Assembly (NCBI GenBank): GCA_018661705.1
Contig: JABJHR010000010.1
Coordinates: 66,911-130,910, forward strand
Direction of reading: 5' to 3'
Length of the DNA stretch: 64,000 bases
Source of the DNA: Candidatus Woesearchaeota archaeon
GTDB taxonomy: Archaea; Nanobdellota; Nanobdellia; Woesearchaeales; DSVV01
The notes under the pieces are model-generated. The model did not search any database. It was given only the letters and a program-made list of their open reading frames with translations, and was not told the origin of the DNA. Shown piece after piece: positions 3,566 through 62,368 of this stretch. The stretch's first letter is position 1, and each line of letters starts with the position of its first letter. The translations under genes were made by a program, and so were the position numbers.

Positions 3566-3616
3566 GAGAAGCTCTAGAACACTAGGTCCATAGGACATGT
3601 CACTCACGAATTTTTA
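3566..3616 (+). repeat. Repeat family A, 3'-half fragment (ACACTAGGTCCATAGGACATGTCACTCACGAATTTTT)
   Basis: Matches the 3' half of A1/A2; the hairpin stem is retained with a different loop (ATA). Confidence 0.55.
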
Positions 3617-4639: not shown

Positions 4640-4777
4640 TTTTATTACCTTCTATCTTGAGTTTTTATGCACAAAAATTTCATTTAAATTTTTGGCATCC
4701 TAAAAATCCGTTTGTCAAAATGGGTGTTACGACATACCCCTACCTTTAGGTTTGGGTGTGATACTCATGACGGATTT

Positions 4778-5380
4778 TTATGATTTTGCTTTAGCGCCTT
4801 TTGCTTTTGTTCCTTTTGTTGTTTTTTTAGCATCAGCAGCTGCTTTTTTTGCTTCTTCATCAATCCAGTCTAGTTTTCCAAGGCCATGTTGCCTCATTGT
4901 TAATCCTAGTTTTGGATTTGTTTGATCTTTATAACTAATAGCAATGATTCTTGCTCTGCATAAATCATTTACTTTTAAGCTTCTTTTACTTTCTTTTCCA
5001 GCTAAAGTTTTTTCTTTAGAAAAACTTACAAAATCATCCATTGTTTGGGAAATGTGAATCATTCCATCTAATGGGCCAACTGAAATAAATGCACCAAAAT
5101 CAGCAATGTCTTTGATTTTTCCAAGAACAACTTCTTGTAAATCTGGCTTGAAAACAAGTAAGTGGAACATTGTTTTATAATAAATAGCCCCATCACCAGC
5201 AATAATTATGCCTTGTGAAACTTCTTCAATATCAGAAACATCAATTACAACACCTAATTCCCTAGATATGTAACCATCATATTTCTCTCTGATTTGTTTT
5301 TGAATTGCTATTGTGGTATCTTCTCCGAATAATTTTGGGTCTACCCTTATATGATCCTCAATCTTTAGTTTGTAATACAT
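4778..5380 (-). CDS. rpoE: DNA-directed RNA polymerase subunit E' (Rpo7), S1 domain
   Basis: 200 aa with Rpb7-like N-terminus and S1-like fold, K/A-rich tail; operon context with spt4 and the PIN protein. Confidence 0.8.
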   Translation of the reverse strand: MYYKLKIEDHIRVDPKLFGEDTTIAIQKQIREKYDGYISRELGVVIDVSDIEEVSQGIIIAGDGAIYYKTMFHLLVFKPDLQEVVLGKIKDIADFGAFISVGPLDGMIHISQTMDDFVSFSKEKTLAGKESKRSLKVNDLCRARIIAISYKDQTNPKLGLTMRQHGLGKLDWIDEEAKKAAADAKKTTKGTKAKGAKAKS

Positions 5381-7661: not shown

Positions 7662-8249
7662 ATGAAATACATTATTGAACATTTAGATGGACGTTTATAC
7701 AAATGGTGTTTTTTAGAATATAAACATATTTCTAAAATAGTCGGAAAAAGCAGCATTCTATTTACAAACGTGAATGGAGTGAAAGCACGTGAAAAACTAG
7801 GTCCGTCAGGACATGTTTATCATGAAAGTTTTACAGATTCTGAAAATATAACAAGAAAGAAAATATGCGTTTTAGATCCAAATGCTAAACAAATATTAAC
7901 AACTTCTGATAAAAATAAATTTGATTATCTTGTTTTTGGTGGGATTATGGGTGATTACCCTCCGAAAAAAAGAACAAAAGGCTTTTGTACTAAAATGCGA
8001 GAGAAAGGAATTAAATTTGAAACAAGAAATATGGGTAAAGAACAAATGTCAACAGATACTGCAGTTCTTGTTGCAAAAATGATAATGGATGGCAAAAAGT
8101 TTAATGAAATCAAATTCAAAGATACAATTATTATTGATATTAATGATTGTGAAGAAGTTGAGTTACCATTTAGATATGTTCTTAAAAATGAAAAACCAAT
8201 TCTTGCACCAGGTTTAGTTAAACATTTGAAAGAAAGAGGATATTTTTAA
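7662..8249 (+). CDS. conserved hypothetical protein (possible SPOUT/Tsr3-like RNA-modification fold)
   Basis: 195 aa; motifs VLDPNAKQIL and DYLVFGGIMGDYPP are weakly reminiscent of Tsr3/DUF367. Not secure. Confidence 0.35.
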   Translation: MKYIIEHLDGRLYKWCFLEYKHISKIVGKSSILFTNVNGVKAREKLGPSGHVYHESFTDSENITRKKICVLDPNAKQILTTSDKNKFDYLVFGGIMGDYPPKKRTKGFCTKMREKGIKFETRNMGKEQMSTDTAVLVAKMIMDGKKFNEIKFKDTIIIDINDCEEVELPFRYVLKNEKPILAPGLVKHLKERGYF

Positions 8250-11794: not shown

Positions 11795-11850
11795 TACGTT
11801 TTTTAATTTTGATTTCTCTAATAAGAATTTAATAAAGAATAAAAGTCCTA

Positions 11851-11946
11851 GTGAAAAAGAGCATCCGCCGGTGTTGAAGAATATTACACTGCATGTCACA
11901 CTACAACACTAGGTCCGAAGGACATGTCACTCACTAAGATTTTTTA
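11851..11946 (+). repeat. Repeat family A, intact copy (A2)
   Basis: GTGAAAAAGAGCATCCGCCGGTGTTGAAGAATATTACACTGCATGTCACACTACAACACTAGGTCCGAAGGACATGTCACTCACTAAGATTTTTTAG, about 85% identical to A1; downstream of a + gene. Confidence 0.7.
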
Positions 11947-12908: not shown

Positions 12909-12935
12909 TTGGATTTTACCTTTGGTCTTGTAGAA

Positions 12936-13024
12936 AACAACAAAAACGGCAGGGCTCACGGACTTTTGCAAGCAAAAATCCTATTCAGCTCTTTTCAATC
13001 GCCTCATCAGCCCGCAATTGTTGT
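12936..13024 (-). repeat. Repeat family B copy (B1)
   Basis: On the - strand: AACAACAATTGCGGGCTGATGAGGCG...GAATAGGATTTTTG-CTTG-CAAAAGTCCGTGAGCCCTGCCGTTTTTGTTGTT. Same architecture as B2-B6. Confidence 0.65.
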
Positions 13025-13225
13025 TTTCTTGTTTATTAGTGAACTTGTTTAGTATTTAAACTTTTCTAAAAATACCACATTTATCAAAAAAATACACAAT
13101 TGTGTACTGGTGTGGTGATTACACTGGTAAAGTATATACTTCTTGAGTGTCTACTAATGTGTAGGATGAACAATGAAACATTGTTTGCCTAAAATAATAC
13201 ATTTTTAAGAATGGAGGGAAGAAAA

Positions 13226-14188: not shown

Positions 14189-14307
14189 TAAAAATAGAAA
14201 AGTCGTAAAAGGATAAAGTTTAAATATTCTTTTTCTTTTCCTTTAATTTTGTGGGGTTGGTTTTAAGTAATGTGAAAACAGTAGATACCCTATCTTTGGT
14301 GTTAAAA

Positions 14308-14393
14308 AATACAACCACAATGGCCAGGTGAGGCGAAGCTGAATAGGACTTTTTACGCAGTAAAAAGGTCCGTCTGTGCCAATATTGTTGTTG
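14308..14393 (+). repeat. Repeat family B copy (B2)
   Basis: ACAACCACAATGGCCAGGTGAGGCGAAGCTGAATAGGACTTTTTAC-GCA-GTAAAAAGGTCCGTCTGTGCCAATATTGTTGTTG. Terminal stem AACAAC/GTTGTT, inner 11-bp hairpin. Confidence 0.7.
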
Positions 14394-14439
14394 TATTTTT
14401 AATTATTAAAAAAGTAAAAAACAAAAAGGTAAAAACAAA

Positions 14440-22831: not shown

Positions 22832-22953
22832 AATATATAATTAAAGGGTTCTATTAATAAATATTTGTATAAATACATATTAAATTATATTTAAACATAG
22901 GATTTAGTAACAATGTCACATACAAAAAACAACAATGGCGCACTTTAATAATC

Positions 22954-23060
22954 CAACAATAATGGCACAGACTGGCCGGGGGTTGGCTCCTTCGGAGTGG
23001 CCAGTAGGACTAATTCGAACATAGTGAGAATTTGGACGTCTGTTGCCATTATTATTGTTG
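22954..23060 (+). repeat. Repeat family C copy (C2), immediately upstream of tRNA-Met
   Basis: CAACAATAATGGCACAGACTGGCCGGGGGTTGGCTCCTTCGGAGTGGCCAGTAGGACTAATTCGAACATAGTGAGAATTTGGACGTCTGTTGCCATTATTATTGTTG. A 19-bp closing stem, a CTCC-UUCG-GGAG hairpin, GGGGG. Confidence 0.65.
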
Positions 23061-23135
23061 GATTCATTATCTACTTATTTTCAATCAAAAACAGTAAAAA
23101 CATTTATAAACAAATTACTTTTCTTAAGACATCAT

Positions 23136-23309
23136 GGCGGCATAACTCAGCCTGGAAGATGTTGATCATCTGGGCAATTAGAGTGCCACGCTCATATTGT
23201 TGAGCTAGGAGTTCCTTAATTGGGATGATGACTAAACAAGAGGCACGTGGATGTCCCGAGTTCAAATTTTGAAAAAGTTATTTTTCAATTGAAAGTCTCG
23301 GTGCCGCCA
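23136..23309 (+). tRNA. tRNA-Met/Ile2 (anticodon CAU) interrupted by three putative introns (D-arm 23 nt, canonical 37/38 48 nt, T-loop 29 nt)
   Basis: Hand-folded. Acceptor GGCGGCA/TGCCGCC, D-stem ACTC/GAGT with loop AGCCTGGAA, anticodon stem CCACG/CGTGG with loop CUCAUAA, variable ATGTC, T-arm CCGAG-TTCAAAT-[intron]-CTCGG, discriminator A, then oligo-T. Mature length 74. Confidence 0.5.
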
Positions 23310-23345
23310 CTTTTTTATCTATATAATAAAAATTGGGGTGAAAGA

Positions 23346-23810: not shown

Positions 23811-23876
23811 AAGATAAGTAAGTAGTTTTAAGTCATAAGTAAGTAGTTTTGGTTTGTAGTAGATAAGTAAGCAGTG

Positions 23877-23943
23877 TACTACCAACTACCAACTACTAAC
23901 TACCAACTACCAACTACCAACTACCAACTACCAACTACCAACT
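23877..23943. repeat. heptanucleotide tandem repeat (CTACCAA)x9, then (CTTCATA)x3
   Basis: actaccaactaccaactactaactaccaactaccaactaccaactaccaactaccaactt read directly; lies in the 3' region after the lipoprotein gene. Confidence 0.8.
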
Positions 23944-24408
23944 TATAACCCACTTCATACTTCATACTTCATACTTCAAACTTAGAACTCATATCCCCCT
24001 TATCTACTCCCGAGTGATTTAATGTTTATTCTTTATGATTTTGCTAGTAGAAAGGTTGTATTCTTAAATTTCTTATATTTTATAATCTCCTTATCGCAAA
24101 GTTTATAAACTACCAATTACTATAAAGGAATACATTAAAAGAGTTGTGTTGGGCTTTATACGCCCTAGTATAGTACTAAGTATAGTACATCGTATAATGT
24201 TTCATAAAAGCATTAACTAGTAAACAAGAGGTTGAACTCTACTTTCCAAGTAGATAATGCTCTTAGCTTTATCTAATGCTTTAATCCAAGTAGATAAAAG
24301 AATAAAAAACGAGTCAGAAAACAAACAAAATAAGAAAAAAACAAATAAAACAAGCAAAATACATACATAAAATACAAAAAAGTACGGAAAAGAATTGAGG
24401 TGAAAAGA

Positions 24409-27083: not shown

Positions 27084-28106
27084 TCATATCTTTTTCATAA
27101 TTACTTTATGTTTATATTTCTTCATTTCTTTCAAAGCTTGTTTCCATGTTAGTAATATATTTTTTGCTCCATAACTTTGAATTACACTTTCTGCATTTGT
27201 TGCTGCTAAGAATAAACAAAATTCAATTGGTTTATTTTTTGCTAATCCTGCAATAAATGAAGAGGTAAATGCATCACCTGCTCCTGTTGTTTCCATAATC
27301 TTAACTTTTCTCGGTTCAATATGGTATAAATAATTCTTTTTTTCATCAACAAAACAATACGATCCGTTTTTCCCATCTGTAATTAACACAATATTAGGTC
27401 CAAGAGTATTTAGTTCTTTAACTAATCTTTCAATTTTTATGTTTTTGTTTTCACATTTATATCCTAATAATAATTTTGCTTCCTCTAAATTAAGAACTAA
27501 TGCCGTTGTTTTGTCAAGAATTTTTTTTAATTTTTTAGGACCTTCTTTTGCAAGATAATTAGTAGGATTAAAAGCAATTTTTATCTTATTTTTTTCTGCA
27601 TATTCTGCTAGTTTCTCTAAAGTTTTAAATGATTCACCTAACATTGTGCAAAAATAAAACCATTTTGCTTTTAATTTTCCTTTTTTAATTTGTTTATTTA
27701 GCTTGCTGAATTTTAATTGATTGCTCAATGCCTTATACGTGAGGATAGTTCGATGATGTTCAATACTATCAAGAATTACTGAATATGCCGTCATTCCTTT
27801 TTCTTCTTCATGTCCTATAAAAGAAACTTTTTCTTTTTTCAATTCTTCAATTATATGTTTTCCATTATCATCTTTTCCAACCATTCCAAGACAAGCTGTT
27901 TTTAGTCCCAATCTAGAAAAACAAACACCTGTATTAGTTGCTCCTCCTCCTGTCATAAAATCAAGTTGTTCTATAAGAACTTTTTTCCCGCAAGGATAAG
28001 CAATAAGATCTTCCTGGCATGTTTTTGTTTTTATTCTTATTAGTTCATTGTCTGTTTTAACAAATACATCAACAGTAGCAGATCCAACAGTTATTACATC
28101 ATACAT
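27084..28106 (-). CDS. PfkB-family carbohydrate/nucleoside kinase (ribokinase-like)
   Basis: N-terminal VITVGSATVDV, GG dipeptide region FMTGGGATNT, C-terminal TTGAGDAF (ATP-binding anion-hole motif). Confidence 0.75.
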   Translation of the reverse strand: MYDVITVGSATVDVFVKTDNELIRIKTKTCQEDLIAYPCGKKVLIEQLDFMTGGGATNTGVCFSRLGLKTACLGMVGKDDNGKHIIEELKKEKVSFIGHEEEKGMTAYSVILDSIEHHRTILTYKALSNQLKFSKLNKQIKKGKLKAKWFYFCTMLGESFKTLEKLAEYAEKNKIKIAFNPTNYLAKEGPKKLKKILDKTTALVLNLEEAKLLLGYKCENKNIKIERLVKELNTLGPNIVLITDGKNGSYCFVDEKKNYLYHIEPRKVKIMETTGAGDAFTSSFIAGLAKNKPIEFCLFLAATNAESVIQSYGAKNILLTWKQALKEMKKYKHKVIMKKI

Positions 28107-28147
28107 TTTAATTAATTCAGGGTTAAGGAAGTTTATAAATCTTGCTG

Positions 28148-28302
28148 TTTGATGGCAATGTCAAACTAATTGTGTTTGCCTACTATTTGTCATTTTCATA
28201 ATTTAATGCTTTAGCATACTTTGTTGTCTACCACATTGAGGCGAAGCAAGATGGTTGGTAGGCTGAAAATGGCTGGCAACACATATAACATAACATTGCC
28301 AT
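28148..28302. other. structured intergenic segment with long-range inverted repeats (candidate ncRNA)
   Basis: GATGGCAATGT...ACATTGCCATG ends; TGTGTTTGCC/GGCAACACA, GCCTAC/GTAGGC and GTCATTTTC/GAAAATGGC pairings. Confidence 0.35.
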
Positions 28303-28373
28303 GTTTGTTAGTCTTGTTAATTTAAGTGTATTAATCATGAATGGGTGCCTTTTACACTTGAATCCATAAAAAT

Positions 28374-28446
28374 CCGGGAAAGTGCCTCATCCCACATTAA
28401 AGTGTGGGGTATGATGAGGCACTTTCCCGGATTTTTAGGATCCCAT
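28374..28446. other. 30-bp near-perfect palindrome/hairpin AAAAATCCGGGAAAGTGCCTCATCCCACA-TTAAAG-TGTGGGGTATGATGAGGCACTTTCCCGGATTTTT
   Basis: Read directly; followed by a second hairpin, CCCATGAAAGCA ... TGCTTTCATGTGG (28455-28525). Confidence 0.6.
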
Positions 28447-28625
28447 GAAAGCATTATGCGGCACAGGACCACATCCAGAACCTAAATGATCTGGTATTGT
28501 GCTTTCATGTGGATAAGGGTAACTTTTATAAAACAAAAGGCCTTTCTTCCTATAATTATATCTCTATTATGAGATATACTCAAATAACGTACATTATAAT
28601 AATGAAGCAAACAAGGTGAGACCAA

Positions 28626-29033
28626 ATGACAGGAGATAATACAGGAATTGAATATATTGCAAGTGGAGCATCAGCTGTAGAAGCACAAAAGAAATTAGAT
28701 GCTATGAAGAAAAAAGGAACAAAAGGAGCAAAACCATACAAGGTAGAGTATTTTGTTGAATTTACTGGAATTAAACCAGATACACAAGGTCAAGTTTTTG
28801 CAGGAGATAGAAGTACTGACAGCGGAAGAGCTTATGATAATGCCATGGCAAAAACAGGTTGTAATACTTTGGCAGAATTAACTGATAAATATGCTGCAAC
28901 TTTTAAGGTAATTGGTCATTGGGGAAATCAACCAGCTAAAAAAGACGCAAAAGATCCATCTTGTAGAAGTCCTTCTGGTAGTGTAATTGATACAACTAGA
29001 AGAACAGAAGATCTTACATACAAATTATTTTAA
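28626..29033 (+). CDS. hypothetical protein
   Basis: 135-aa ORF, AGGTGAGA ribosome-binding-site-like sequence upstream. Confidence 0.4.
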   Translation: MTGDNTGIEYIASGASAVEAQKKLDAMKKKGTKGAKPYKVEYFVEFTGIKPDTQGQVFAGDRSTDSGRAYDNAMAKTGCNTLAELTDKYAATFKVIGHWGNQPAKKDAKDPSCRSPSGSVIDTTRRTEDLTYKLF

Positions 29034-29133
29034 TTATTATTTTATCTTATTTTATTATTTTTCACAAAAAAGTGTTTTGAGACTTCTTACTTAATTAAAG
29101 TATAAAAACATAACGGAGAAAAACTAATATAAA

Positions 29134-30693
29134 ATGACATCACCATTCCCAAAGCAACTAACAGAAATGGTTAGAAAGAGAATTGAACGTAGTGACATCT
29201 TTTTTGGTAAAGAAGAAAGTTTTTACAAACGAGCATATGATACTGCTGTTCACGGAAGAGATTTTTTTAGTTATGGTTTTTCTGGCTGTTTGTACACTGG
29301 AAATTTTGCACCTTATCAACATGAAATGGAGTTAGATGGATATAAAGGATTTAATTGTACAACTGTTATTCCTTCTTTATACACTTTTTGTGATCTTTTT
29401 GAATTACAACCAAGAATTGTTCAATTTATTAATTTTAGAGATATAAAAAAAACAAAAGAAGCACAAAAAAAACCAGAACCATTATCAAGTTCACATTACG
29501 GAATAATTGTAAAAGTAAAGGGTCAAGATTATTTTGTTGATCCATATCATTCTAGATTTGGTAAAATAAAAGAATTTACAGGTACATATATGGAAGTTGG
29601 TAAAAGTAGATCAACAAAAGCAGTTAGAAGAGAATTCCAACAAATTATTCCTTATACTCCTGAACAATTTGTAGAAATGATGGATCATCTCAGAACTCCC
29701 GAAGGTTCATTGGAAATGTTAATTGCAGGTCAAGAAATTAAAAAAGGGGGATATTATGGTGGTTTTAGGGATTGTAAAATAATGCTTCATTATTTTGATG
29801 ATGTAAATGAAGTTAGAGTTAGATTAGAAATACCACAACCAAACATACAAGATAAAATTGTTTACAACCATATGTTTTTTGATGACGAAGGAGAAATAAC
29901 AGGACAATCAACTGAATTACTTGTTACTGAATTAGCATATTGGGATGATTTAATAGATCCAACATCAATTGCAAAAGGAACTTTGCCTTTTATGAAATCA
30001 ATTGATACATTACTTAAAGATAAAATTGATCTAAAAAAATCACCACGTTTAGGGCCGTTTTTTATGCAGCCAGATAATCAGGGTTTGTTTGGAATGATTG
30101 AACAAGAAATGTTAACTGATTTTACACAAAGAACTCCTGGTTCAGAAGCACTAATAAGGATGATTCTTGCAAGAACATTATATGAAACAGAAGCTCCTGA
30201 AAAAGAATATTTGTTTGATGAAGGAGCAAGAACAGCAGATTTAAGAAAGAAATTAGAACAATGGAGAGTAATGGGTGCTAAGTTTGTTACTCATCCTGAT
30301 GAAGTAGAACGATTAGATATTTCAGTTGGTTTATTTAATCCTGATAAAGAATATAAAAGACGAAATCGAAGAATAACAAGGGCTAGATCAAGAAGACATA
30401 GAAAAATTGATGAGAATTTTGGGGATGATCTTAATTTAAGAGGCGTTAGCAGAGAAAAACACGATAGAGTAATGGATATGGTTTTATATGCAAAACAATT
30501 AGGAAATATTTCTGTTGATGAATTAAATGCAAGAGTAAAAGAAAGAAATGTTAATCCAAGTTTTGGTTATTTGGCAATGGTTGCTGATTTTATCCCTTCA
30601 ATTTTAGGGGCTGAAAAACTTTTAACATTAGAACCTTTTATGGATGATATCAAAGCAAAAATTAAGGCAAGAAGAGCATTTTTGAAAAAATAA
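29134..30693 (+). CDS. hypothetical protein; possible papain-fold (transglutaminase/NAT-like) Cys-His enzyme
   Basis: 519 aa; GFNCTTVIPSLY...HYGIIVKV...DYFVDPYH gives a Cys...His...Asp order. Weak. Confidence 0.35.
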   Translation: MTSPFPKQLTEMVRKRIERSDIFFGKEESFYKRAYDTAVHGRDFFSYGFSGCLYTGNFAPYQHEMELDGYKGFNCTTVIPSLYTFCDLFELQPRIVQFINFRDIKKTKEAQKKPEPLSSSHYGIIVKVKGQDYFVDPYHSRFGKIKEFTGTYMEVGKSRSTKAVRREFQQIIPYTPEQFVEMMDHLRTPEGSLEMLIAGQEIKKGGYYGGFRDCKIMLHYFDDVNEVRVRLEIPQPNIQDKIVYNHMFFDDEGEITGQSTELLVTELAYWDDLIDPTSIAKGTLPFMKSIDTLLKDKIDLKKSPRLGPFFMQPDNQGLFGMIEQEMLTDFTQRTPGSEALIRMILARTLYETEAPEKEYLFDEGARTADLRKKLEQWRVMGAKFVTHPDEVERLDISVGLFNPDKEYKRRNRRITRARSRRHRKIDENFGDDLNLRGVSREKHDRVMDMVLYAKQLGNISVDELNARVKERNVNPSFGYLAMVADFIPSILGAEKLLTLEPFMDDIKAKIKARRAFLKK

Positions 30694-30734
30694 TTTTAGT
30701 TTTTCTAGTAATATATAGGGTTATAACGCCTTTC

Positions 30735-30780
30735 TACAATTGCGGATGCTTCTTTTTTCACTAGGATTTTTTCTATTTTC
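30735..30780 (-). repeat. Repeat family A, 5'-half fragment (reverse orientation)
   Basis: ACAATTGCGGATGCTTCTTTTTTCACTAGGATTTTT is the reverse complement of the A 5' end ...TAGTGAAAAAAGAAGCATCCGCAATTGT. Confidence 0.55.
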
Positions 30781-37235: not shown

Positions 37236-37342
37236 AAAAAGTTTCGTGAGCTATATGTCCTTCGGACCTAGTGTTGTAGTGTGACATGCAGTGTAATACT
37301 CTTCAACAATTGCGGATGCTCCTTTTGTCACTAAGAATTTTA
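37236..37342 (-). repeat. Repeat family A, intact copy (A3, reverse orientation)
   Basis: Reverse complement reads AAAATTCTTAGTGACAAAAGGAGCATCCGCAATTGTTGAAGAGTATTACACTGCATGTCACACTACAACACTAGGTCCGAAGGACATATAGCTCACGAAAC...; downstream of the - gene 37395..39236. Confidence 0.7.
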
Positions 37343-45185: not shown

Positions 45186-45280
45186 ATTAGAAGAAAATCG
45201 CTCATGTTTTTTATATGTTTTGGTCAGGTTTTGTGTTATTATAAGGAATTTTGTTTTTTTTATGTGAAAAAGAAAGATTA

Positions 45281-45516
45281 ATGAGTGACATGTCCTACGG
45301 ACCTAGTGTTTAATTTTATAATGTGGTGAGATAACAAAAAACAACAACAAAGGCACAGACGGACTTTTTCCAAAAGTCCTATTCGGCCGGTACTTGAGAG
45401 TTCGTAGAACTCACTCTCTTCGCACCACCTCATCTGGCCGTGTTGTTTTTTGTACTAAGAAGATAATATTTAATACTCTTTAACAATTGCGGATGCTATT
45501 TTTCTCACTAAGAGTT
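45281..45516 (-). repeat. Composite element: A 3'-half, B copy (B3, 45339-45448, with an extra internal hairpin), then A 5'-half, all in reverse orientation
   Basis: gagtgacatgtcctacggacctagtgtt ... aacaacaacaaaggcacagacggactttttccaaaagtcc...ggccgtgttgtt ... taatactctttaacaattgcggatgctatttttctcactaagag. Confidence 0.65.
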
Positions 45517-45549
45517 TTTATATCTGTAATATCAAAAAAGAAAATAATC

Positions 45550-48410: not shown

Positions 48411-48424
48411 TCTTGGAAAAAAAT

Positions 48425-48572
48425 CCTAGCGAAAAATAGCATTCGCAATTGTTAAAGAGTAATAATATTTAATATTTTAATACAAAAAATAACCATGGCC
48501 AGGCGAGGTGAAACCGAGTAGGATTTTTTGAGTGGAACGAAAAAAGTCCGTCTGTGCCTTTGTTGTTATTTT
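48425..48572 (+). repeat. A 5'-half (48425-48470) directly followed by a B copy (B4, 48486-48572)
   Basis: TAGCGAAAAATAGCATTCGCAATTGTTAAAGAGTAATAATATTT...AATAACCATGGCCAGGCGAGGTGAAACCGAGTAGGATTTTTTG-AGTGGAA-CGAAAAAAGTCCGTCTGTGCCTTTGTTGTTATTTT. Confidence 0.65.
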
Positions 48573-48600
48573 TTGTTCTTATACTTTCAAAGTTTTATTA

Positions 48601-55483: not shown

Positions 55484-55569
55484 AATAGAAAGGTTACAAT
55501 TGGGGTATAAATAGTTTTTGCTGTTTTTTAGACATTTCTAGTAATATTTGACTTAAAAAACAAAATTCA

Positions 55570-55835
55570 CGAGAAACATGTCCTTCGGACCTAGTGTTGT
55601 AGGAGTTATTACTTTCTTTTATGATACAAAAAATAACAACTGGGCCAGATGAGGCAAAGCCGAATAGGATATTTTACAAAGTAAAATGTCCGTCTGTGCC
55701 GTTGTTGTTATTGTTGCTTGATGTTAATCATGTTTAATAATTTCGACTTTAGTCGTAATTATTATTGTTTTTTGCTAATGCTTTGTTTACTAAATAAAAT
55801 TACAATTGCGAATGCTACTTTTCTCACTAATATTT
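55570..55835. repeat. Composite element: A 3'-half (reverse), B copy (B5, 55632-55712, forward), spacer, A 5'-half (reverse)
   Basis: acatgtccttcggacctagtgttgtag ... AATAACAACTGGGCCAGATGAGGCAAAGCCGAATAGGATATTTTAC-AAA-GTAAAATGTCCGTCTGTGCCGTTGTTGTT ... ttacaattgcgaatgctacttttctcactaa. Confidence 0.65.
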
Positions 55836-55916
55836 AGTTTTTTACTTTAATTTAAAGATTGATTAAGATAATTTCGCACAAAATATAAATACTTCTTAAC
55901 TATTAATAACTAAATC

Positions 55917-57866: not shown

Positions 57867-57918
57867 TTTTTTTAATTTTTTATTTCTTTTAATTTAACTT
57901 GTTAAAAAACAAAAATTT

Positions 57919-58060
57919 GTGAGTGACATGTCCTTCGGACCTAGTGTTGTAGAGATTAATTATTTTCTTTTATGATACAAAAATAACAACAATGGCCAGG
58001 CGAGGTTAAACCGAGTAGTATTTTTTCGACAGAATGGAGAAAAAATGCGTCTGTGCCATT
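57919..58060. repeat. A 3'-half (reverse) followed by a B copy (B6, 57980-58060, forward)
   Basis: gtgagtgacatgtccttcggacctagtgttgtag ... AACAACAATGGCCAGGCGAGGTTAAACCGAGTAGTATTTTTTC-GACAGAATGGA-GAAAAAATGCGTCTGTGCCATTACTTGGTGTT. Confidence 0.65.
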
Positions 58061-58196
58061 ACTTGGTGTTAATCAAGCTTAATAATTCCTGACTTTAGTC
58101 GGAATTATTTTTGTTGTTGTTATTTCGTTATTATATTAATTATTAATAGAATTTTCAAACCAACTTATTACTTAAAACTTAGAACTAACAACTTCA

Positions 58197-62236: not shown

Positions 62237-62260
62237 AATTAGAGATTAAGATCTAAAGCA

Positions 62261-62340
62261 AAAAATAATAACATTGGTGCTGGTGGGGGTGGGTTGGCTC
62301 CGTCGGAGTACCCGCCAGCTGCCGTTGTTGTTATTATTTT
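62261..62340 (+). repeat. Repeat family C copy (C3)
   Basis: AATAACATTGGTGCTGGTGGGGGTGGGTTGGCTCCGTCGGAGTACCCGCCAGCTGCCGTTGTTGTTATT. Closing stem AATAACA/TGTTATT, stem GCTGGTGGG/CCCGCCAGC, inner CUCC-GUCG-GGAG. Confidence 0.6.
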
Positions 62341-62368
62341 TTGCATCTACAAGAACACATAAAAAAAC

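Follow-up and report, generated by a model that had tools for sequence, protein, structure and literature searches.

A candidate mosaic of foldback repeats between two divergent core promoters in a woesearchaeal genome

The spacer and its hairpins

In order to characterise a strongly folded intergenic region of a Candidatus Woesearchaeota archaeon, we examined a 519-nt spacer within a 64-kb stretch of its DNA, hereafter the window (GC content ~31%). The spacer is bordered on its left by a gene for a PfkB-family kinase (27084-28106, − strand) and on its right by a divergent gene for a 135-aa protein (28626-29033, + strand), downstream of which lie a gene for a 519-aa protein (29134-30693) and a Mur-ligase-like gene. 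The closest relatives of the window PfkB were found in Candidatus Woesearchaeota metagenome-assembled genomes (DPANN archaea), and the locus was found to be identical in NCBI assembly GCA_018673555.1 and in many metagenome contigs. Loci of relatives were used for comparison (L001, L002, L003, L004, L010 and L014, with PfkB identities of 74-88%, L010 at 88% and L014 at 86%, as well as L011), together with strains otherwise identical to the window at this locus (L006-L009) and 8 kb of the same genome beyond the left end of the window (L109). An initial annotation, made by inspection of the letters, had proposed that the spacer holds either a large non-coding RNA (ncRNA), such as RNase P RNA or signal recognition particle (SRP) RNA, or the inverted-repeat ends of a decayed insertion sequence (IS) or miniature inverted-repeat transposable element (MITE).

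Each end of the spacer carries a predicted archaeal core promoter (Table 1). The ATG of the PfkB gene, at 28106, lies only ~25 nt downstream of its TATA box and the mRNA is therefore probably leaderless. The sequence AAACA(N)ATTTATAAAC upstream of PfkB was kept in L001, L002, L003, L004, L010 and L014. TTTATAWA cores mark intergenic promoters across the window, and a tRNA-like gene at 23135 shows the same ~25-nt spacing. On the other side, the GTAACTTTTATAAA box, the 5′ untranslated region and the AAGGTGA of the 135-aa gene were all kept in L010 upstream of its 132-aa gene. Similarity to the relatives ends at ~28151 on the left and at ~28517 on the right, which are the outer ends of the hairpins H1 and H3 described below, and the window-specific DNA (28152-28514, hereafter the block) is bounded on both sides by promoter sequence kept in relatives. 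As judged from these alignments, the block exactly fills the gap between the two predicted core promoters. It adjoins both sets of B recognition elements (BRE) and TATA boxes within 10-12 bp; the TATA cores at 28132 and 28525 are themselves quasi-palindromic, and no TTTATAWA promoter core was found inside the block.

The block was predicted to fold into four abutting, independent hairpins, H1, H1b, H2 and H3 (Table 1), with no long-range closing helix except the stem of H1 itself. An inverted-repeat listing revealed no short motif repeated among H1, H2 and H3. The longest open reading frame (ORF) between PfkB and the 135-aa gene measured 47 aa, in line with the earlier remark that none exceeds 60 aa. 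When folding energies were compared with those of dinucleotide shuffles, the whole 519-nt spacer gave z = −6.9 on the + strand and −8.3 on the − strand. In a GC-corrected 150-nt sliding scan of all 64 kb, the most extreme values on both strands came from 28301-28500 (z = −5.7 to −7.8), the next-best value anywhere being −3.8, and H1 was among the top few on the + strand. The block is the strongest folding outlier of the window, and its density of structure is therefore far beyond chance. Its GC content is 41-49% over 28200-28520, as compared to 16-27% in many other spacers.

The outer arms of H1 are perfectly paired, and all of the complementarities previously listed for 28148-28302, including the inner ones, are present. 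H1 folded slightly better on the + strand, with a minimum free energy (MFE) of about −46.5 to −47.3 kcal/mol as compared to −41.1 on the − strand (z = −4.3 and −3.1, respectively). H1b also favoured the + strand (MFE −11.2 vs −5.4 kcal/mol), its z-score of −1.6 on this strand not being significant alone. H2 corresponds to the hairpin that had been described as having arms of about 30 bp with CCCACA/TGTGGG: its 25-nt arms (28367-28391 and 28413-28437) are 100% complementary and enclose an inner CCCACA/TGTGGG stem of 6-7 bp. An A5 run at the 5′ foot and a T5 run at the 3′ foot extend the stem to 28362-28442, its MFE structure contains at most one G-U pair, and its z-scores were −9.7 (+) and −11.3 (−). 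The arm sequence of H2 has no second occurrence in the window. For H3, which folded better on the − strand (z = −4.7, as compared to −3.1 on the + strand), the pairing of imperfect 15-nt arms around CCAGA..TCTGG was found as proposed, but the earlier placement at 28455-28525 was ~13 nt too far right.

Table 1 Coordinates of the features of the locus and of the repeat families named in the text (window positions unless a locus is given; TIR, terminal inverted repeat)
Feature	Position	Strand	Description
PfkB TATA box	28132..28139	−	TTTATAAA; A-rich BRE-like stretch before it on the − strand
Left direct repeat GTTTG	28147..28151		Candidate target-site duplication flanking H1
H1	28152..28302		151-nt foldback; 10-bp perfect TIRs ATGGCAATGT (28152-28161) / ACATTGCCAT (28293-28302); branched interior
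Right direct repeat GTTTG	28303..28307		Flanks H1
H1b	28320..28363		Weak hairpin ATTTAAGTGTA / TACACTTGAAT; 11-nt arms, 91% complementary
H2	28367..28437	+	Perfect foldback with 25-bp arms; apical CCCACA-UUAAAG-UGUGGG hairpin
H3	28440..28514		75-nt hairpin ATCC-CATGAAAGCA (28444-28453) / TGCTTTCATG (28500-28509)-T-GGAT; two small inner hairpins
135-aa gene TATA box	28525..28532	+	GTAACTTTTATAAA; L010 homology starts at ~28517, directly after H3
Shine-Dalgarno-like AAGGTGA	28613..28619	+	6 nt before the 135-aa ATG; kept in L010
Hairpin A copies	14299-14402, 48474-48580, 55621-55722, 57972-58079	+
Hairpin A copies	45330-45461, 12929-13036	−
Hairpin A, weaker copies	22942-23069, 62253-62345	+
Hairpin A in relatives	L010 1405-1500		−; L010 9071-9159 (+), L001 3058-3146 (+), L014 1390-1484 (−)
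Family-1 copies	37240-37335 (+), 2744-2838 (−), 11848-11942 (−)
Family-1 long variants	45260-45530, 55550-55850, 57900-58160, 48418-48577
Family-1 fragments	3569-3615, 7793-7826, 30732-30776

The H2 family, candidate insertions and the locus in relatives

Repeat copies were sought in ~72 kb of this genome, made up of the window and L109. Comparison of the block with L109 by BLAST gave an 18-nt match, which led to two further elements, at window 4694-4788 and at L109 3703-3747, the latter ~4.5 kb away from the window. In the orientation of the flanking genes, the 14-nt termini of the family are ATC(C)ATAAAAATCCG ... CGGATTTTTAGGAT(G/C)CC. H2 could be aligned over its full length with the 4694-4788 copy (57/86 = 66% identity), with which it shares the apical hairpin and the following GGGGTATG. 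The L109 copy keeps the base of the stem and derives from a longer form by deletion. A covariance model built from these three copies (R2) was used to search 136 kb and returned exactly the three, with scores of 101 bits for H2, 96 for 4694-4788 and 50 for L109 3703-3747. On H2 it scored 101 bits on the + strand and 51 on the − strand, the + strand being the sense orientation of the other copies. The apical CCCA..TAAAG..GGG was also detected in L010 (8752-8771), L001 and L011, as compared to a chance expectation of 0.045 per 64 kb. H2 thus has both the termini and the apical hairpin of the family, which counts three copies in these ~72 kb of this genome and one in the L010 lineage.

The genes flanking the copies are unrelated and the copies non-syntenic, and the family is therefore dispersed rather than orthologous. 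The other copies are co-directional with both neighbouring genes and follow genes, at the stop codon or within 50 nt of it; at 4694-4788, the TAA stop of the upstream gene (4778) provides the first three bases of the hairpin. Both other copies in this genome end in T5, which is missing from the L010 copy. H2 presents its stem and a T5 on both strands, and no annotated transcription unit runs into it. By these comparisons, H2 is a pristine member of a dispersed and apparently terminator-like repeat family. Outside this lineage, a metagenome scan with both H2 arms gave 0 matches, a weak negative as even the native locus is missing from the collection. The family pattern retrieved only three unrelated hairpins from viral contigs (two in contigs of 60-61% GC and one in a contig of 37% GC), and phages and plasmids held no copy of H1, H2 or H3.

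Directly adjoining the H2-family copy at both of the other loci of this genome (window 4670-4697 and L109 3632-3710) is a second hairpin, GCCAAAAATTT[...]AAATTTTTGTGCAC, whose apical insert measures 5 nt at one locus and ~45 nt at the other. Gain and loss of sequence at the apex seem to be how the hairpins of this genome evolve. A proteasome subunit gene and an aCPSF1-like (KH/beta-CASP) gene flank the pair in L109.

H1 looks like a MITE-like insertion on account of its perfect TIRs and the GTTTG repeated on both of its flanks. The left GTTTG lies within TGTTTGAT, a string common to L002 and L003 next to the promoter, and a 5-nt flank match of this kind has a chance probability of ~0.002-0.006. 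Terminal inverted repeats of some form are present in these three hairpins, being perfect over 10 bp in H1, part of a full palindrome with the family termini in H2, and imperfect (15-nt arms) in H3; for a target-site duplication, H2 offers only an ambiguous TA and H3 none. Weak BLAST matches of H1 to L004 and to window 41128 were rejected as chance similarities lying in coding sequence. A metagenome scan for the TIR-gap-TIR pattern of H1 returned 91 stretches, none of them similar internally, which is a weak negative as the collection seems not to contain this organism.

The block is missing from the orthologous spacer in the nearest relatives, contrary to what would be expected of a conserved ncRNA. 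In L010 its slot is occupied by a gene for a 269-aa histidine kinase (+ strand), followed by genes for 132-aa and 519-aa proteins and a Mur ligase, the 132-aa product being 50% identical to the 135-aa protein. In L014 the Mur ligase gene is directly divergent from PfkB across a 182-nt spacer, without the block or the two genes. L004 has a different upstream neighbour at 55 nt, and the spacer of L002 and L003 is unrelated. On another contig, a methyltransferase gene is followed after 53 nt by the gene for a 136-aa variant of the 135-aa protein (identity of at least 90%) with no adjoining block, and the block is therefore not part of the gene cassette and does not travel with it. All block-bearing contigs were clonal, with 0 differences in the block and 1 single-nucleotide polymorphism in one 2.9-kb contig, plus a recombination-like patch in the 519-aa gene, and so offer no variation in which covariation could show. 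Two other origins were considered and rejected: no kinase remnant that would make the block a decayed histidine-kinase gene was found in the window by tblastn and blastn, and the repeats that the block shares with the far end of the cassette, as would suit the end of a mobile island, are only chance matches of 6-10 nt.

The spacers of the relatives contain foldback structures of their own. In L003 the PfkB promoter is likewise next to a MITE-like element, a ~230-nt insertion (~345-565; inverted termini of 18 nt, GTAACTACTAAGCCTGCC/GGCAGGCTTAGTAGTTAC) that separates it from the ATG and is missing from L002. On the strand divergent from PfkB, L002 (3787-3860) and L003 (130-205) share a conserved ~75-nt hairpin (CCTGCG.. 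/ ..CGCAGG) followed by T6, the one difference between them changing a G-C pair to G-U on that strand; this hairpin is a candidate small RNA reading outward from the PfkB promoter. The L014 spacer between the Mur ligase and PfkB genes has, at ~2790-2880, a long hairpin with imperfect pairing (TTTTGAAGGTAAGGAG...CTAACCATCCTAACCTTCAAAA), flanked by the two divergent promoters. Hairpins between divergent promoters recur in this clade.

Foldback repeats and rival explanations

We favour, with a probability of roughly 55%, the reading that the spacer is a lineage-specific mosaic of non-coding foldback repeats, resembling MITEs or repetitive extragenic palindromic (REP) sequences, and not a conserved RNA gene. 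The initial annotation had named no match in Rfam, no expression and absence from relatives as signs of a mobile-element relic rather than an ncRNA. The first and the last of these were found (the Rfam searches are given below), which by its own rule points to mobile or repeat DNA. The direction of its IS/MITE suggestion was thus upheld, but not the idea of a single decayed element, since there are four abutting foldbacks and H2 is undecayed. Foldback elements would have accumulated, or been left behind, in a hot spot of gene-content change between two divergent core promoters. H1 would have arrived by transposition as a MITE-like element and H2 by duplication or mobilisation of a REP-like, terminator-type hairpin; alternatively, H2 may once have been the terminator of a + strand gene, since lost, that occupied the slot of the L010 kinase. 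The present role of the block would go no further than that of a spacer, or of a stop that acts in both directions on stray transcripts leaving the two promoters. On either strand, the first T5 run inside the block is the 3′ foot of H2, and stray transcripts from either TATA box would therefore meet a stem followed by a U-tract.

A number of observations weigh against this interpretation. The GC content of the block, well above that of other spacers, is as expected for a structured RNA in an AT-rich genome. The H2 arms, without mismatch, fit a recent origin but equally selection, and conservation of the apical hairpin across species is a hint of function, not of junk DNA. A search of the window, L109, ~60 kb from relatives, one metagenome collection and viral, phage and plasmid sequences gave no second copy of H1 or H3, and a multi-copy family, a defining feature of MITEs, is apparent only for H2. 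No transposase or autonomous parent element turned up, the window proteins having had no systematic transposase screen. As the block carriers are clonal, they offer no presence/absence polymorphism, and there is no clean empty site among the relatives, in which the whole spacer differs.

Like MITEs, the block consists of small (71-151 nt), non-coding, intergenic and lineage-restricted foldbacks; H1 has perfect 10-bp TIRs flanked by a 5-bp direct repeat, and the H2 family has conserved termini, a more variable interior and dispersed, non-syntenic copies. Unlike MITEs, H1 and H3 showed no multi-copy family in the sequence searched, no parent IS or transposase was found, and there is no empty-site allele. 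The H2 family, a possible TA apart, lacks a clear target-site duplication, and it conserves its apical hairpin across species, which would be unusual for the interior of a MITE. A published census places a woesearchaeal genome with those archaeal genomes that are densest in MITEs (PMC11602168). The REP, Correia, RUP and ERIC repeats of bacteria are likewise short dispersed palindromes that form head-to-tail clusters in spacers, and their mosaics (bacterial interspersed mosaic elements, BIMEs) resemble the arrangement H1-H1b-H2-H3; REP-type repeats are often found at gene 3′ ends as terminators or mRNA stabilisers, and H2-family copies also follow genes. These families are, however, bacterial, run to hundreds of copies and have known partners (RAYT transposases, IHF and gyrase), whereas only 3-4 copies of the H2 family were seen in ~130 kb, the host is a DPANN archaeon and no RAYT-like gene turned up. 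H2 and its two paralogues also resemble intrinsic or bidirectional terminators in their GC-clamped stem running from A5 to T5, the paralogues standing directly after stop codons in the sense orientation; unlike such terminators, H2 lies between divergent genes without an annotated transcript to end, and its 31-bp stem is far longer than is typical. In these terms the block, though tidy, is unremarkable: it is made up of palindromic intergenic repeats, elements of a kind already known, here in a DPANN archaeon.

That the block is RNase P RNA, SRP RNA or another Rfam RNA too divergent to be recognised by eye is effectively refuted. In its favour are only the amount of structure and the raised GC content, which archaeal RNase P and SRP (7S) RNAs also display in AT-rich genomes. 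Searches of Rfam 15 gave no meaningful match: at the gathering score there was none in the whole 64-kb window nor in 40 kb of related loci, and at a permissive E <= 10 over 27900-28800 only generic long-hairpin families matched, as artefacts, all of them on H2. These were Plastid-psbJ-2, a plastid 3′ untranslated region model (37.7 bits, as compared to a cut-off of 65.6), and precursors of plant or animal miRNAs, and even at this threshold neither RNase P nor SRP models appeared. The block also lacks P4 and helix-8 motifs, its four independent hairpins without long-range closing helices are the wrong architecture, and the universal conservation expected of these RNAs is contradicted by its absence from this locus in L010, L014, L002, L003 and L004. 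The proposed large ncRNA was hence not confirmed: the structure is significant on both strands but belongs to no known RNA family. Guide RNAs were rejected as well, since by inspection no ACA stands directly 3′ of any hairpin on the + strand, the one AUGAUGA, inside an H2 arm, has no matching D or D′ box, and Rfam snoRNA matches reached 14-17 bits against cut-offs of 35-44. A bacterial promoter and terminator scan is uninformative for an archaeon. One or more unannotated, lineage-specific small RNA (sRNA) genes would be a more credible RNA explanation and the main rival, if still an unlikely one. A + strand transcript of ~200-270 nt would contain H1 and H1b and end at H2 as its terminator, starting from the quasi-palindromic PfkB TATA box, which may be used bidirectionally, or from a weak internal promoter; a − strand RNA might cover H3. 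This would account for the raised GC content, for the strand preferences of H1, H1b and H3, for the + strand of H2 being the sense orientation of family copies that follow genes, and for the first + strand T5 standing at the H2 3′ foot; the palindromic TATA cores at 28132 and 28525 and the conserved L002/L003 hairpin with its T6 are also consistent with it. A start ~25 nt from either TATA box (~28164 on the + strand, ~28500 on the − strand) would, however, leave H1 or H3 without its outer 5′ arm; on the − strand, the BRE of the 28525 box is poor and pyrimidine-rich, and the block has no dedicated TTTATAWA core. Nor is there a homologue in any relative or an Rfam match, and the H2 stem, essentially without G-U pairs, reads as a DNA-level palindrome.

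We consider it decidedly unlikely that the block is what remained after the loss of a + strand gene, with H2 and perhaps H3 as an orphaned terminator module and the rest as deletion or replacement filler. In L010 this very slot does contain a + strand kinase gene, and the conserved promoter and the cassette come after it there as well; other H2-family copies lie between co-directional genes at or near stop codons, and the second adjoining hairpin at two loci gives an arrangement like that of H2 then H3. Against this, tblastn and blastn found no trace of the kinase or another coding remnant, L010 has no H2-like hairpin after its kinase gene, H2 is oddly the least decayed copy of its family for a relic, and the TIRs and direct repeat of H1 would still call for a separate insertion. 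Only a small chance is given to the proposal that H2 and its relatives are mobile hairpin-type terminator or 3′-end elements specific to DPANN archaea or Woesearchaeota, with the apical CCCA-UAAA(G)-GGG recognised by a host factor and the block then functional, either as an H1-containing sRNA ended by such an element or as an insulator of the divergent promoters. Archaeal termination is not known to need a hairpin. It has been described as dependent on a U-tract and aCPSF1 (PMC8716108), and such elements, if real, would amount to hairpin-dependent 3′-end formation in an archaeal lineage, as opposed to that view. Very improbable, finally, is regulation at the DNA level, in which the palindromes would be binding sites or cruciforms controlling or insulating the two divergent promoters. 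The closeness of the block to both BRE/TATA elements and the perfect Watson-Crick palindrome of H2 would suit it; the same promoters nevertheless work in relatives without the block, the 136-aa variant gene lies 53 nt behind another gene, operator half-sites are typically far shorter than the 25-bp arms, and H1, H2 and H3 share no short motif.

Other repeats of the genome and implications

The spacers of this genome harbour other prolific repeat and hairpin families (Table 1). One of them, which we call hairpin A, is a structured element of ~100 nt; the 64 kb contain eight copies, and it is also conserved in relatives whose PfkB is 86-88% identical. Its core is a three-way junction, GGCCAG-RY-GA-[P2]-GARUAG-[P3]-CGUCUGUGCC, in which P2 and P3 are hairpins, closed by a long A-rich/U-rich stem. 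RNAalifold predicted 35 pairs, 8 with compensatory double changes, and the two pairs of P1 that alternate between G-U/U-G and A-U/C-G would be mismatched if the element were read from the other strand. With tandem GA flanking P2 it has a K-turn-like look, and a resemblance to the hammerhead is superficial as the core nucleotides differ. Hairpin A had no Rfam match and may be a real ncRNA family. Like H2, it is intergenic with a long A-rich/T-rich outer stem around a GC-richer core, and we considered H2 as a diverged copy; this was rejected, as a covariance model of hairpin A (R1), run with filters off, aligned only the generic outer stem (22.7 bits), the 57-nt three-way-junction core being replaced in H2 by 22 nt.

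A second family, Family-1, is a ~95-nt repeat with ~90% identity between copies (GTGAGTGACATGTCCTTCGGACCTAGTGTTGTAG...CAACAATTGCGGATGCTC(T)TTTTCTCAC), of which the 64 kb contain ~11 copies or fragments. Its structure is weak, its copies are often antisense to flanking genes, and its long variants carry hairpin A in either orientation. None was found in the loci of relatives compared here, and it had no Rfam or viral match. Short tandem repeats with CAACTAC and CTTCATA units were also observed at 23811-24000, in a 462-nt spacer between convergent genes.

The 135-aa and 519-aa genes form a portable two-gene cassette (window 28626-30693; L010 2925-4989; a JGI 3300072015 contig), whose products had no match in Pfam, PHROGs, PADLOC or NCBIfam. 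The cassette adjoins PfkB in two lineages, lies behind a radical-SAM/methyltransferase pair in another and is missing from the 86% relative. Within the 519-aa ORF, 29832-29953 differs from L006-L009 by 22 substitutions in 120 nt, which are mostly synonymous or conservative and not adenine-specific. The idea of a diversity-generating retroelement (DGR; template repeat or spacer RNA) was rejected, as the window holds no second copy or template repeat of this patch, and no reverse transcriptase domain was found among the neighbouring genes scanned; the patch looks like a recombination tract from a diverged allele rather than the outcome of DGR mutagenesis. ARAGORN reported no tRNA or tmRNA. A tRNA-like gene with several introns is nevertheless present at ~23135-23312 (+ strand), with a TTTATAAA box 25 nt upstream, an acceptor stem GGCGGCA/TGCCGCC, a D-arm and a T-arm (CCGAGTTCAAAT...CTCGG) split by inserts; it was missed by both ARAGORN and Rfam.

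For annotation, these results mean that the locus should not be called RNase P, SRP or another ncRNA gene, and hairpin A and the other repeat families of the window may be better targets for ncRNA discovery. For the organism, they suggest that a streamlined DPANN genome tolerates, and probably spreads, palindromic repeats right up against core promoters where gene content turns over. Should H2-type hairpins prove to act at the 3′ ends of RNAs, they would be to archaea what REP- and Correia-type elements that double as terminators are to bacteria.

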